Below are positions 54,002-58,584 of a stretch of 64,000 nt of DNA, piece after piece. Location: IMG/VR virus record IMGVR_UViG_3300033073_000738, positions 57,015 through 121,014 of that record. One strand, given 5' to 3'. The notes beneath the pieces were generated by a model. It worked only from the letters and a program-made list of their open reading frames with translations. It ran no database searches and was not told the DNA's origin. Both the position numbers and the translations under genes were made by a program. This stretch comes from a virus. Taxonomy: Duplodnaviria > Caudoviricetes. Every line of letters begins with the position of its first letter. Position 1 is the stretch's first letter.

Positions 54002-56197
54002 TTAGCGTAGATTTTTAAAAGCGTTTCTAGGAGGCCCCTGTTTTGTTGTAGAAGACCTACCCATATGTCTGAAAGGGCCCCAATTTAATTTACTGATTTT
54101 TTGAGAGTTCTCCAAGTTTTGGTTTGTATGCTCTACACGTTTACTATAGCCTCTATTTGACTGTTGTATTTTAGCAAAAGCAATTAGAGAACAGAATGCA
54201 ACCAACCGGTCAACGTTTAACCCGTCGTAGTAAGCTTGCATCTCTTTTAAAAGCATTGGGTCTGGGATGCGTTCCACCCCATAAGTGGTCTTAACTATCG
54301 TGCCGTCAGACTTGGTTTCAACGTCGAGCTCCTCTTTGATGTACTCGACCCCGTAGGAGAGCAAATTTCCCTTGAAAATTGTACCTACGTTCTTCCACCC
54401 ATATTCTTGGAAAACGTTCCTATTGGCTCCCAGATCCTTTAAAAAGGCTATCATGTCCTTGGGTACCAGGTAACGTTGCTTTTTACGGGAAATCATATAC
54501 TGAATGAACAGGGCAACGTTGTTTTCCACCACTGTCCAGGCGTTGTACCATTCTATGATGATTTCAAGACGTTCGTGTGTCTTGTTGATGTCGTCAAACC
54601 TACCGCACCAACTGGCTACAATACCATCCCTTTCTATATGATTTTCTACTTTACCGTCTCCCCCATCTTTAATAACTTCTACAGGGTTTTTGTAGACATA
54701 TATAGAACATAGAGATTCTGATGTTGTAGTTTTACCCTCTCCTACAGGATCTACAGAAGCGTAATACATACCAAATTGAGGGTCTTTAACCGGACGCTCG
54801 TAAATACATATGACACTTTCTTTATCCTCGGTCTTCTTAGAAATAGGAAACTCCATGATTGGTGTCTTCCTACTGGGTTTATCTACTATCTTACCGTCTG
54901 CGTTTCTGGACAGCTCTAAGTATTCAACTGAATACATCTTATCTGATATCCTCTGTAGTTGTTTAGAAACAAGATGTGAAGGAAACTTAGATTCTCTTCT
55001 GGTGGCAAAAGCCTCCATTATGTTTCTGGGATGCTGAGAAATCTCAAGCTGATAAGCCTCCGGTGTAAGATTTCTTTTAGCTTTTTCAAACTGCTCATCC
55101 AAAGCTTCTAAAGCTTCTTTAACCAAAGAATTGCCGTATTGATCTATATACGGAGGCATACTCCATTGTTCTGGTATGAACAACCCTGTTGTACCCACTG
55201 CACCGTCGCTGTCTATAAGATTGGAATCAACACCATAAAATCCATTCTCTTCGGGGTGGTATATATATTCTTTTAGCGGACCGCACTGGTCCAAGTCACC
55301 CACTGAACCAGCTGCTATAAATTGACCAGTGATGATATGACCAGACTTCAGGGCCGGTTTTATGAACCCATATGTGTCATTCATTTTAGGGGCAATACCT
55401 GCTTCTTCATGAAAGAAATAACTAACAGGACCACCGACACCGTTTGTAGGGTCTTTTTCGAATGTATAACCGGCTATAGTAGATTTTAAGCCTTTGTAGG
55501 TGTCACGTCCGTTGATTCTCACCTTGATCTTCTGCTCCCAGGCAAATATCTTTTCAGGTTCAGAAGGACGATACCATGCTGTATGTTCGTTGAGAAAGTT
55601 CTTATATTCATTGAGAAACTTCCAGGATCCTTTTTCGTTTATGTAGTCTTTTGCAGAAGCTCCCATTTTAAGTACAGCACCTTCTTCAAACCAATAGGTG
55701 TTAATGAGCTTTGCCATGTGGAAATAAGAGGAAGCTATCTGACGTTTCTTAAGAATGATGGCATGTTTGTAGTTGAGCTCAGCTAGATGCTCATATAAAG
55801 CCATGTGATACTGGGCATCTCTCACCTTGGCAAAGTCAAACCGCTTTTCTTCCTTGTCGTATATGGGAAGAAAGTTGAGCCACATGTAATAATCCCTGGT
55901 GATGTACCAGGATTTGCCCTCATTATTAACGATAATACCGTTTCTGCACTTGTTCTTCTGGTCATCCCAGTAGGATATAAAGTCTTTTGTCTTAACCGGT
56001 GCCGCACAATAGAAGCCTTGTTTCTGAAACTTTCTACCTTCTGAATTGAATACAACACTACTGTTGTCAAACTCATATTGACCTGGCTCTTTAAATATAG
56101 ACAGCAAATAGTCCCGGAATTCCTCCCGGGACTTGAAAGCTGTCACGCTCCATGAGCCGTTTTCATAGGTAGAGATTTCTTTAAAATTATTGCTCAC
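54002..56197 (-). CDS. terL: Terminase large subunit
   Basis: LKKRQIASS (Walker A variant), FFHEEAG (Walker B), YYASVDPV (RNase H-like nuclease), VENN, NVDRLVAF. Confidence 0.92.
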   Translation of the reverse strand: MSNNFKEISTYENGSWSVTAFKSREEFRDYLLSIFKEPGQYEFDNSSVVFNSEGRKFQKQGFYCAAPVKTKDFISYWDDQKNKCRNGIIVNNEGKSWYITRDYYMWLNFLPIYDKEEKRFDFAKVRDAQYHMALYEHLAELNYKHAIILKKRQIASSYFHMAKLINTYWFEEGAVLKMGASAKDYINEKGSWKFLNEYKNFLNEHTAWYRPSEPEKIFAWEQKIKVRINGRDTYKGLKSTIAGYTFEKDPTNGVGGPVSYFFHEEAGIAPKMNDTYGFIKPALKSGHIITGQFIAAGSVGDLDQCGPLKEYIYHPEENGFYGVDSNLIDSDGAVGTTGLFIPEQWSMPPYIDQYGNSLVKEALEALDEQFEKAKRNLTPEAYQLEISQHPRNIMEAFATRRESKFPSHLVSKQLQRISDKMYSVEYLELSRNADGKIVDKPSRKTPIMEFPISKKTEDKESVICIYERPVKDPQFGMYYASVDPVGEGKTTTSESLCSIYVYKNPVEVIKDGGDGKVENHIERDGIVASWCGRFDDINKTHERLEIIIEWYNAWTVVENNVALFIQYMISRKKQRYLVPKDMIAFLKDLGANRNVFQEYGWKNVGTIFKGNLLSYGVEYIKEELDVETKSDGTIVKTTYGVERIPDPMLLKEMQAYYDGLNVDRLVAFCSLIAFAKIQQSNRGYSKRVEHTNQNLENSQKISKLNWGPFRHMGRSSTTKQGPPRNAFKNLR

Positions 56198-56995: not shown

Positions 56996-57018
56996 ATTTG
57001 TAGGTTTAAGTTAATCTG

Positions 57019-57176
57019 CTGTAAGGGGAGGAATCGAACCTCCACGTGGTCTTTAGGAACAGCACAAAGTGGGTGGTCAACCCCTGCAGTCACTTGCTGC
57101 TATATGCTGTCTTTATCAGAGAAAAACCCACACCCCCGAGACAAGAGGGTACGTCTGCCAATTTCGTCACCTCACA
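57019..57176 (-). tRNA. Atypical tRNA-like RNA, anticodon GUC (Asp), 89-nt variable arm
   Basis: Acceptor UGUGAGG/CCUUACA; D-arm ACG-AAAUUGGCAGA-CGU; anticodon arm CCCUC-UUGUCUC-GGGGG; T-arm GGAGG-UUCGAUU-CCUCC. Confidence 0.75.
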
Positions 57177-57258
57177 AGTTGGACTGTTCAAGACATATGT
57201 GACATACACCATCTTCATTTAGCAATACATCATGTATGTTGCAAATGTCTTTTTCCAT
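57172..57258 (-). CDS. 28-aa CxxH/CxxC micro zinc-finger peptide (MEKDICNIHDVLLNEDGVCHICLEQSNL)
   Basis: Read manually. Starts 2 nt after the upstream stop; its TGA lies inside the tRNA-like acceptor stem. Confidence 0.55.
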   Translation of the reverse strand: MEKDICNIHDVLLNEDGVCHICLEQSNL

Positions 57259-57260
57259 AG

Positions 57261-57647
57261 TTAATAATTGAATGTCAACATCTTTACTGCATTCATCTGA
57301 GCGTTTAAGACCTCACCGATTGTATGCTCGAATAGTTTTATTCTCAAATAAGATGAACTACGACGCCCTTCATTGTAGTGCTCATTGAGTAAATCAGCCA
57401 ATTCCGCACATAGTTCTTTTGCTCTTTGTACTTTAGGGTCACCTGAGGGATTGAATGTTAGCCCTACTAGTTGCTGTCCAAAAGTCAATTCTGGTGTTTG
57501 ATCCATATTTGTTGGTTTTAATTTTTTATAAGGACAATGTTTACAATTGTTGTTACAGCATTTACCACGCTGAAGATGGTATTCTTCTGTAAAGACCACC
57601 ATATCTCCGTCCATGTAATAGTGTACATCCTTGATAAACTCTTTCAT
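57261..57647 (-). CDS. DUF5522-like Cys-rich domain fused to an Acb2/Tad1-like helical-hairpin domain
   Basis: VFTEEYHLQRGKCCNNNCKHCPY, then TFGQQLVGLTFNPSGD...AQMNAVKMLTF. Likely start 57647 (TAATG overlap); internal ATG at 57506. Confidence 0.6.
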   Translation of the reverse strand: MKEFIKDVHYYMDGDMVVFTEEYHLQRGKCCNNNCKHCPYKKLKPTNMDQTPELTFGQQLVGLTFNPSGDPKVQRAKELCAELADLLNEHYNEGRRSSSYLRIKLFEHTIGEVLNAQMNAVKMLTFNY

Positions 57648-57712
57648 TACCGGTTGTTCTTTATCCATTGATAAATGGAGTTGATAATGTTCTGCACAAG
57701 ATTGTCATGCAT
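57647..57712 (-). CDS. 21-aa micropeptide (MHDNLVQNIINSIYQWIKNNR)
   Basis: Starts 2 nt after the thermonuclease stop; its TAA overlaps the next ATG. Confidence 0.4.
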   Translation of the reverse strand: MHDNLVQNIINSIYQWIKNNR

Positions 57713-57714
57713 CT

Positions 57715-58068
57715 TTATAGAATGTACTCTATTGCATACCCGTTGTCTACCAGCCACTGATTTAAGTGAAGGCTGTAGTCTTCACCACAATAGATGTCAA
57801 CCAGGGGTCGACCATACTTGTCCAGTTCACGAGATACTATCTTGATTTTAGATCCCGCTGGTAAATGCTCTTCTGTTTTAGCCTTGGCTTCTTTAGCAAG
57901 CTCTCTCACCTGTTTGTCTTTTGCTTTCAGCTCTGGTGTGTTAATACCATAGAATCTGCACGTGGATTTCCAGAAAATAGTAAAGCCCAGGTCAATGTTG
58001 AGCTCTACGGTGTCACCGTCTACTGTACGTAGTACGGTGGCTTCATAGGTGTATAAATTGTGTGTCAT
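57715..58068 (-). CDS. Thermonuclease (SNase-like)
   Basis: RTVDGDTV, RFYGINTPE, DKYGRPL, LNQWLVDNGYA. Confidence 0.9.
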   Translation of the reverse strand: MTHNLYTYEATVLRTVDGDTVELNIDLGFTIFWKSTCRFYGINTPELKAKDKQVRELAKEAKAKTEEHLPAGSKIKIVSRELDKYGRPLVDIYCGEDYSLHLNQWLVDNGYAIEYIL

Positions 58069-58071
58069 AGG

Positions 58072-58584
58072 TTATTGGTCGTAAGCGAGACTCTGCCCTC
58101 CTCTCACTGTAGATTGTTGTTCTTCCTCAAGGTCTCTAAGAGTGCCCTTAAAACTCTGTCTGATTGCTTCAAACTTTGCCGCTGCATTAACAAGTGCTGT
58201 GATATTACCATCTCTACCATGCTCAATCTCTGTGGTCTCCATATACTTAGCCAAACGGTCAAGCATACTTTTGATACCTGCGTAGGCCCTATATGTGGGA
58301 GTTTCGTAGAGCTTCTTGCATAGTTTAATAGCCTCGGTAATAAGATCGTCATCAGTTGAAAAGTCTGCGTCAATCTCTTTAAGAACAAGCTCCTCTTTAT
58401 CTGTTTCAGGGACATCAAAAAACGGGTTCAAATCAGGGTTGGGACAAGTCATGTAGAACACGTAAGCATACACTTTGGTAGCTTCTTCTCCATAGTTGTC
58501 CATAATAGCTTTTAAACTACTCAAGGTGTAGCAGTGTTCTGAGGGCATCACCTTGCCGTTTAGTATATCAAATAGTCTTACCAT
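58072..58584 (-). CDS. Conserved crAss-like protein, candidate terminase small subunit
   Basis: 170 aa from MVRLFDI; helical; C-terminal VRGG motif; upstream of TerL. Confidence 0.45.
   Translation of the reverse strand: MVRLFDILNGKVMPSEHCYTLSSLKAIMDNYGEEATKVYAYVFYMTCPNPDLNPFFDVPETDKEELVLKEIDADFSTDDDLITEAIKLCKKLYETPTYRAYAGIKSMLDRLAKYMETTEIEHGRDGNITALVNAAAKFEAIRQSFKGTLRDLEEEQQSTVRGGQSLAYDQ

Follow-up and report, generated by a model that had tools for sequence, protein, structure and literature searches.

Introduction

Modules with the shape of a tRNA also occur outside standard decoding, as in tmRNA, YrlA and the stable RNAs C and D of phage T4, and some of them are phage-encoded or lie beside tRNA genes. 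tmRNA and YrlA do without an anticodon arm, and in YrlA the ends of the RNA form the stem that binds Ro. Here we describe a tRNA-like RNA gene of 158 nucleotides (nt) on the minus strand, at 57019-57176, of a 64,000-nt stretch of viral DNA (hereafter the window; positions 57,015 to 121,014 of the IMG/VR virus record IMGVR_UViG_3300033073_000738), which is the right-hand part of this 121,014-base-pair (bp) record, itself estimated to be 93% complete. In contrast to tmRNA and YrlA, this RNA keeps a complete cloverleaf, and in contrast to YrlA its ends form a tRNA acceptor stem and the phage genome holds no Ro60 gene. It is an intact and conserved gene, neither a one-off nor decayed, and sequence comparison indicates that it belongs, as a phage copy, to a family that occurs both in Bacteroidota chromosomes and in their crAss-like phages. 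The reading that we prefer, with a probability of roughly 0.45, is that of a tRNA-like RNA which can be read by AspRS but does not decode, which has an amino-acid-linked role, and which has been captured by the phage.

The canonical tRNAs to which this RNA has to be compared are well characterized with respect to identity. In bacteria, aspartate identity resides in G73, G10, the anticodon G34 U35 C36 and C38, leucine identity requires A73, and serine identity involves G73, C72, G2-C71, R4-Y69, C11-G24, a large variable region and G30-C40, with an exchange of A73 for G being able to switch Leu-type tRNAs to serine acceptance (PMC9976931). The bacterial determinant of GatCAB is U1-A72, whereas base 36 is not read; tRNA-Asp that is given U1-A72 and lacks U20A is amidated nearly as well as tRNA-Asn, the extra D-loop base of tRNA-Asp hinders GatCAB, and D-loop size is an anti-determinant (PMC1635274). 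Precedents exist for organisms in which GatCAB is retained to make asparagine although AsnRS is present as well (PMC4206432).

A complete cloverleaf with mixed identity marks

Read directly from the sequence, the minus strand at 57019-57176 specifies a complete cloverleaf, with position i of the RNA corresponding to window position 57177 - i. Its parts are as follows.

57019..57176, minus strand: whole tRNA-like RNA gene, 158 nt (from the sequence, covariance model R1 and nhmmer homologues)
57170..57176, minus strand: 5' strand of the acceptor stem, UGUGAGG, 7 bp with CCUUACA at 57020-57026, including one G-U pair
57151..57167, minus strand: D arm, 3-bp stem ACG/CGU with the Leu-type loop AAAUUGGCAGA (from sequence and alignment)
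57133..57149, minus strand: anticodon arm, stem CCCUC/GGGGG and loop UUGUCUC (57138-57144)
57044..57132, minus strand: variable-arm domain, 89 nt (from alignment A3, RNAalifold and pair counts)
57128-57131 with 57046-57049, minus strand: variable-arm helix P1, GUGG with CCAC
57118-57120 with 57050-57052, minus strand: variable-arm helix P1b, UCU with AGA
57112-57117 opposite 57053-57056, minus strand: asymmetric internal loop of the variable arm, GAUAAA opposite CUAA
57103-57111 with 57057-57066, minus strand: variable-arm helix P2
57086-57100, minus strand: lineage-specific hairpin GCAG-CAAGUGA-CUGC in the variable arm
57071-57084, minus strand: conserved GGGGUUGACCACC in the variable arm
57027..57043, minus strand: T arm, GGAGG-UUCGAUU-CCUCC
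57019, minus strand: discriminator G73, followed by C

The acceptor stem of the window copy begins with U1-A72 and G2-C71 and is joined to the D stem by U8 and G9. In the D arm, the loop of which has 11 nt, A14, G18, G19 and A21 are conserved, and position 10 is A instead of G. The anticodon GUC (57140-57142) is followed by U37 and C38, two unpaired bases precede the T stem as in class II tRNAs, and downstream of G73 the DNA reads CAG in place of CCA, i.e. no CCA is encoded. The cloverleaf, the Leu/Ser/Tyr-type D loop with its 3-bp stem, the loop UU-GUC-UC, the discriminator G and the missing CCA had all been described in a first-pass annotation of the window, as had an 89-nt structured variable region at 57044-57132 with the helices GUGG/CCAC, ACAGCAUA/UGUGCUGU, GCAG/CUGC and GGG/CCC, and every one of these elements is where that annotation placed it.

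This combination of parts corresponds to no single known tRNA. With tRNA-Asp(GUC) the RNA shares the 7/5 acceptor/T arrangement, GUC, C38, G73, the standard T loop and G18 G19; however, tRNA-Asp is a class I tRNA with a variable region of 4-5 nt, whereas here a class II body is combined with a Leu-type D arm and a variable region of 89 nt, position 37 is U where tRNA-Asp has a purine, the first pair is U1-A72 instead of G1-C72 (PMC1635274) and, in the window copy, position 10 is A. Like tRNA-Leu (RF00005), it has a 3-bp D stem, the loop AAAYUGGCAGA, the same placement of the variable arm and two bases before the T stem, but it differs from tRNA-Leu in G73, in its Asp anticodon and in an arm that is 4-5 times longer and contains internal loops and a junction instead of being a simple hairpin. 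The combination of U1-A72 with G73 is that of the GatCAB substrates (tRNA-Asn, tRNA-Gln), from which the RNA is set apart by its larger D loop, by its presumed failure to decode and by its GUC anticodon, so that a discriminating AspRS could charge it. Allo-tRNAs similarly combine a long arm with an unexpected anticodon but are built on 8/4 or 9/3 acceptor/T arrangements, as opposed to 7/5 here (PMC5389517). Judged by sequence, the RNA is thus nearest to tRNA-Leu in its body, to tRNA-Asp in its loop and to tRNA-Asn/tRNA-Gln in its acceptor end, and it fails defining features of every one of these.

Conservation among phage relatives

In IMG/VR, phages related by their large terminase TerL have homologues of the RNA in the corresponding position, with nhmmer E-values down to 5.8e-35 when the window copy is the query. 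A pattern scan of IMG/VR widened this phage set to a total of 80 distinct sequences of 84-171 nt on crAss-like phage contigs. In an alignment of 17 diverse phage members (A1), all 340 of 340 cells of the core cloverleaf are paired and compensatory changes occur in 12 of the 20 pairs; none of 500 shuffles was as good, and controls in which the pairing was slid along the sequence reached 45-63%. While the extraction of the A1 sequences demanded pairing of the acceptor and T stems, no condition was placed on the D and anticodon stems, and it is these unconditioned stems that hold seven compensatory pairs, with all five pairs of the anticodon stem covarying.

The covariance model that the first-pass annotation had recommended as a check was built from this core (R1). 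It scores the window RNA, which is a member of its seed, at 92.5 bits and finds 42 members at 60-99 bits in 81 TerL-linked phage sources, where ordinary tRNAs score 24-35 bits; the nearest outgroup is ordinary tRNA-Leu at 33-55 bits. The shortest relatives (85-96 nt) are called tRNA-Asp(gtc) by ARAGORN, and some phage relatives sit in tRNA clusters together with Met, Leu and Cys tRNAs.

Across the family, including the chromosomal copies introduced below, conservation is concentrated in the anticodon loop and at the acceptor end. The sequence GUCUC occupies positions 34-38 in 77 of 80 phage sequences and in 126 of 126 bacterial sequences (distinct sequences in both cases), and position 37 is U in every one of these. 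Base 33, which is U in the window copy, is U in only about 90% of members, with all four bases occurring. G followed by C occupies positions 73/74 in 80/80 phage sequences, and G73 is found in 138 of 139 bacterial copies; U1-A72 is kept in 40 of 42 long phage forms as well as in 138/139 bacterial copies, and G2-C71 in all 42 long phage forms. Position 10, by contrast, is not conserved.

Departures from the common loop are confined to three phage copies. Two of 94 nt (L112:6056-6149 and L138:108-201, both minus strand) read GUUUC, i.e. they carry the Asn anticodon GUU with U37 and C38, and one of 153 nt (L154:490-642, plus strand) reads GUCUA and hence has A38. A separate phage subgroup of 167-170 nt has a hairpin in the D loop in addition to a giant variable arm (L041:3411-3580, L022:2645-2814, L011:2681-2850, L048:3535-3701 and relatives); this hairpin, GGGUU-GUCUCAGUUAU-GACCC, repeats the anticodon-loop motif GUCUC, which is replaced by CUCAGC in L048 and L033.

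The variable arm as a folded domain

The variable arm is a conserved multi-helix domain. Arms of the phage copies span 15-102 nt and form a nested series, from a 15-nt hairpin (in an RNA of 84 nt) through a hairpin whose loop holds CUGAUAAAG (95 nt) and a form with an added inner hairpin (110 nt) to the full domain in RNAs of 141-171 nt. In an alignment of 42 long phage forms (A3), RNAalifold detects three conserved helices. P1 occurs as GUGG/CCAC, GUAG/CUAC, GAGG/CCUY, GCAG/CUGC or GAUG/CAUC and P1b as UCU/AGA, ACU/AGU, AGG/CCU or CGG/CCG; an asymmetric internal loop, RAUAAA opposite CUAA, divides P1b from P2, and P2 terminates in an invariant AUA/UGU and encloses a junction in which GGGUUGACCAC is invariant and hairpins are lineage-specific. 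None of these elements is missing from the window copy, which adds a hairpin of its own, GCAG-CAAGUGA-CUGC, on the 5' side of the conserved junction. The same architecture and motifs recur in the bacterial copies.

A decayed pseudo-tRNA or an integration scar, which the first-pass annotation had proposed to recognize by an arm free of covariation, does not fit this picture. Counting arm pairs only (14 pairs, 588 cells), 97.6% of cells are paired and 10 of the 14 pairs show compensatory changes, a result equalled by none of 500 shuffles and far from the 34-47% pairing of slid controls. What could be said for decay, a scar or an intron-containing tRNA comes from single-sequence tools. Default ARAGORN and Rfam at its gathering threshold make no call on 57019-57176, and ARAGORN -mt and Rfam at E-values up to 10 yield only a partial tRNA-Sec-like match (17.6 bits, E 1.4); for the window RNA, ARAGORN reports no tmRNA and Rfam no YrlA-type family and no group I match. 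RNAfold of the single sequence recovers most of the named helices of the variable arm, yet the folding energy is unexceptional against shuffles (z -0.36 for the whole RNA and -0.66 for the arm), so the sequence by itself does not prove function and the case rests on comparison.

At relaxed thresholds ARAGORN proposes a tRNA-Arg(CCU) with an 84-nt intron. This model has an anticodon stem of just 3 bp and draws its 'anticodon' from the CCUAA of the conserved internal loop, where relatives have GCUAAC, so that the model is not conserved. Neither a group I nor a bulge-helix-bulge intron fits, as the insert is nested within the variable-arm loop and an RtcB gene is absent from the phage genome; the first-pass annotation had likewise held that the insert was too short for a group I intron and not placed in the anticodon loop. 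Nor does anything point to splicing, the short relatives of 84-95 nt being complete cloverleaves already. With compensatory covariation in every helix including the arm, and with hundreds of intact relatives, a decayed, scar-derived or intron-containing tRNA is hardly credible.

Some phage copies in A3 carry an optional apical element between GACCAC and the 3' strand of P2, which the window copy lacks. It is nearly always a perfect palindrome flanked by A's, for instance GCGCGC, GCAUGC, GUGCAC, UGUGCACA, GUUGCAAC or GCUUGCAAGC. A palindrome of at least 6 nt is present in 43 of 52 phage copies versus 15.5% of shuffles, these sequences being related and thus not independent events, and bacterial copies show no palindrome enrichment. 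Since six-base palindromes cannot be hairpins, loop-to-loop dimerization of the phage copies is conceivable.

A chromosomal family with its own regulator

The family extends well beyond phages. When a 28-nt pattern covering the D arm and anticodon loop was scanned against a collection of species-representative genomes, at least 120 stretches matched, and among the matches listed all are from Bacteroidota, the carriers including Pedobacter, Chitinophaga, Saprospiraceae, Cyclobacterium, Spirosoma, Algoriphagus and Persicobacter. At least 139 complete bacterial copies, 126 of them distinct and 107-192 nt in length, could be extracted. In an even sample of 151 Bacteroidota genomes, R1 finds the RNA in 14, and two further copies lie at contig ends (about 16/151). 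Five carrier genomes also hold a normal class I tRNA-Asp with the loop CUGUCAC, and the RNA is therefore an extra gene. In Persicobacter diffluens, five tandem copies of 123 nt with a spacing of 172 nt are arranged like a tRNA array (L226:6437-7247, minus strand).

In these chromosomes the RNA and a regulator of the Lrp/AsnC family form a two-gene cassette. By Pfam, two of the five genomes inspected have such a regulator adjacent to the RNA, and an Lrp/AsnC-type gene lies within 600 nt, usually at 130-350 nt, in 75 of 120 bacterial loci. Among the matches listed the regulator is in every case on the strand opposite to the RNA. For the loci checked, its position is upstream of the RNA's 5' end, i.e. 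the two genes are divergently transcribed. The cassette is established by co-occurrence: a search of 61 Bacteroidota genomes for the regulator found close orthologues (77-93% identity) in six, all beside the RNA, so that the RNA is present in 6/6 genomes with a close orthologue (two of these copies being cut by a contig end) versus 0/55 of the others. Regulators of the Lrp/AsnC, or feast/famine, family sense amino acids. Inspection of homologue neighbourhoods had been suggested in the first-pass annotation with rtcB and Ro60 in mind; what it revealed beside the bacterial copies was this regulator, and the phage genome contains neither RtcB nor Ro60. The remaining bacterial neighbours vary (TrmB, HflX, pseudouridine synthase, cytochrome bd, a LacI-type regulator).

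In Chitinophaga sp. E66 (G001, the genome of locus L224), the regulator, gatB and glnS are each split into two adjacent frames and an asnB-type gene has two in-frame TAA codons, which suggests assembly indel errors and not biology.

What the RNA may do

An important question is whether an RNA with an Asp anticodon and a tRNA fold is simply another tRNA. Its function is probably other than routine protein synthesis. That it does not decode is suggested by the invariant U37, by base 33 not being U in about 10% of members, by the coexistence of a normal tRNA-Asp in the hosts and by arms of up to 102 nt. At the same time, all bacterial Asp identity marks except G10 are present in the window copy, and those present are invariant in the family, while A73 and a Leu anticodon are absent, G73 and GUC taking their place. 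On this basis, our preferred reading would run as follows. The RNA would mature like a tRNA, by RNase P, 3' trimming and CCA addition; AspRS would recognize GUC, C38 and G73 and charge it with aspartate; U37, the non-fixed base 33 and the bulky arm would keep it out of routine decoding; and its role, exercised away from the ribosome, would then be linked to amino acids, be it as carrier or as sensor. The phage copy, which comes without the regulator and occupies a tRNA-gene slot upstream of the terminase gene, would impose this function regardless of the amino-acid signal of the host.

In its most specific version, which we consider doubtful, the RNA would be a dedicated non-decoding aminoacyl carrier: once AspRS has charged it with Asp, GatCAB would read U1-A72 and amidate the bound Asp to asparagine, and this Asn, sitting on an RNA that ribosomes cannot use, would be released as the free amino acid or handed to another acceptor. 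The Lrp/AsnC-type regulator would turn the RNA on when the amino acid is scarce, and phages would have taken the RNA, lost the regulator and often the arm, and run the reaction during infection. GatB is indeed present in 14/14 RNA carriers of the 151-genome scan, and GatB, AsnRS and GlnRS all occur in the five carriers tested closely.

Several observations weigh against the proposed role or its asparagine version. GatB is found in 126 of the 151 sampled Bacteroidota (83%) regardless of the RNA, so that its presence is not specific; AsnA is missing from all 14 carriers but occurs in only 4/151 genomes overall and thus does not discriminate; and AsnB-type synthetases in four of five carriers mean that no pathway gap demands the RNA. 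These tests of the asparagine idea by gene co-occurrence are uninformative or weakening. The Leu-type D loop of 11 nt exceeds that of tRNA-Asn in size, which may hamper GatCAB, since a large D loop acts as an anti-determinant for this enzyme. The Asp determinant G10 is replaced by A10 in the window copy and in most long phage forms, and a set of Ser marks, i.e. G73, G2-C71, G4-U69, C11-G24 and a large arm, is present in the window copy. Moreover, short phage forms exist without the arm domain, which therefore cannot be essential to the core function, and the regulator is assigned by its sequence to the Lrp/AsnC family only and is not called AsnC.

The most direct competitor to a non-decoding RNA is a working elongator that decodes GAY as Asp, with the unusual loop and arm protecting it from a host anticodon nuclease or from cleavage of tRNAs under stress. 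All nucleotides of the tertiary fold are conserved along with the Asp anticodon, short relatives are called tRNA-Asp(gtc), phage genes sit in clusters with Met, Leu and Cys tRNAs, and the two phage relatives with GUU keep the same body, as if the meaning of the anticodon mattered. An invariant pyrimidine at position 37 together with a base 33 that is not fixed would, however, be very unusual for decoders, and arms of up to about 100 nt as well as the D-loop hairpin of one subgroup are without precedent in ribosomal tRNAs. Furthermore, hosts own normal tRNA-Asp genes and place this RNA under a private Lrp/AsnC regulator, unlike ordinary tRNA genes, and ARAGORN finds no ordinary tRNA gene anywhere in the phage genome, which argues against simple codon supplementation. 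We regard a working elongator as unlikely.

Alternatively, the RNA might stay uncharged and act as a mimic or sponge by titrating a protein that reads the anticodon loop of tRNA-Asp, in the phage as a decoy; candidate targets would be an anticodon nuclease similar to colicin E5, AspRS or a modification enzyme. No single-stranded element other than GUCUC is invariant, its repetition in the D-loop hairpin of one phage subgroup resembles multiplied bait, and phages hold the RNA without its regulator. Yet a loop decoy would have no need for an acceptor end (G73, U1-A72, G2-C71) and an elbow that are as conserved as the loop, and it should present the exact host loop CUGUCAC, where in fact U always replaces A37. 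Chromosomal copies with an amino-acid-type regulator would also be hard to explain, and no nuclease or immunity gene is linked to the RNA in the bacterial and phage neighbourhoods inspected. A decoy thus appears quite unlikely.

The Ser marks of the window copy raise the further alternative of an RNA charged by SerRS on account of its class II body, G73 and long arm, which would act as a serine mistranslator or serine carrier. G73, G2-C71, G4-U69 and C11-G24 would be in line with this, as would the capacity of Leu-type tRNAs to accept serine once A73 has become G (PMC9976931). On the other hand, C72 is absent, its place being taken by A72, many members have U11-A24 instead of C11-G24, and G30-C40 is not retained. 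The anticodon is not among the elements that SerRS reads, which would leave the conservation of GUC and C38 without an explanation, and charging by SerRS is very unlikely.

Of the role envisaged in the first-pass annotation, the general part, a non-standard decoder with an extra structured domain, stands, whereas the specific roles are unsupported. For a nuclease decoy we found no positive evidence. A Y-RNA-like scaffold finds no support, given the lack of a Ro60/TROVE gene in the phage genome, the lack of an Rfam match and ends that form an acceptor stem, nor does a substrate for splicing or RtcB, given the lack of RtcB in the phage and relatives of 84-95 nt that are already complete cloverleaves.

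Overall, the RNA unites three features not known together, i.e. the marks of one amino acid on the body of another's tRNA, a folded arm and a regulator of its own. The arm of this family is a conserved folded domain of 40-100 nt and the regulator belongs to the feast/famine class. If charged but non-decoding, the RNA would join the few cases of tRNA-dependent reactions outside translation, and phages would be seen to borrow such a cofactor; if decoding, it would violate what holds for position 37, for base 33 and for the size of the arm. The carrier version, if true, would provide the first example of a tRNA-like RNA whose sole function is that of a metabolic cofactor, and also the first example of viruses carrying such a cofactor. 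Although few genes are catalogued as well as those of tRNAs, this family, which spans many genera of one major phylum plus its crAss-like phages, escapes ARAGORN and Rfam. It is not in Rfam 15, a literature search found no paper describing such a tRNA in phages or crAss-like viruses, and the family is apparently uncatalogued and undescribed. In practice, annotation of Bacteroidota and phage genomes now misses the gene or mislabels its short copies as tRNA-Asp.

The phage genome and neighbouring genes

All large open reading frames (ORFs) of the window are on the minus strand. TerL (54002-56197), the portal and the major head protein are recognizable, and TerL is about 26% identical to that of gut crAss-like phages and crAss-like Flavobacterium phages. 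This likeness marks the virus as a distant crAss-like phage with a probable Bacteroidota host; blastn of the region against a collection of cultured phages gave no match. TerL is encoded on the same strand as the RNA gene, which precedes it by about 820 nt and is flanked by a DUF5522 gene and a small ORF; farther upstream are an SNase-like nuclease, a conserved ORF of 170 amino acids (aa), PhoH and an exonuclease. No Lrp/AsnC-family regulator is found beside the phage RNA, whose neighbours are the DUF5522 gene, the SNase-like nuclease, unassigned ORFs and TerL. The genes next to the RNA on its upstream side are the following.

57261-57668: DUF5522 gene, between the RNA and the 170-aa ORF
57715-58068: SNase-like gene, between the RNA and the 170-aa ORF
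58072..58584, minus strand: 170-aa phage ORF, no assigned function

Related phages have homologues of the 170-aa ORF with 55-88% identity, and in 48 of 71 of their loci the distance to the RNA is less than 500 nt (median 30 nt). In the loci inspected the ORF is directly upstream, ending 4-75 nt before the RNA, so that the DUF5522 and SNase-like genes that separate the two here look like an insertion. The protein has no sequence match in Pfam, PHROG or PDB, and its helical AlphaFold model (predicted local distance difference test score, pLDDT, 75) has no fold match. Its adjacency to the RNA may be plain synteny among related phages.

The same phage has two further tRNA-like genes, both outside the window. 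One is an odd gene of 70 nt (G000:C1:682-751, plus strand), for which ARAGORN draws a 6-nt anticodon loop and assigns no anticodon. The other (G000:C1:481-598, plus strand) represents a second tRNA-like family with relatives at L124:9980-10112 (minus strand), L124:4588-4706 (minus strand) and L133:9734-9830 (plus strand). This second family, which scores 39 bits with R1, combines the acceptor AGUCAGK...CCUGACU and A73 with a D arm of exact Leu type (GCGGAAUUGGUAGACGC) and with a normal T arm. In place of the anticodon loop a stem GAGUA/UACUC closes a 47-nt insert of two hairpins, and this middle part is hypervariable among phages.

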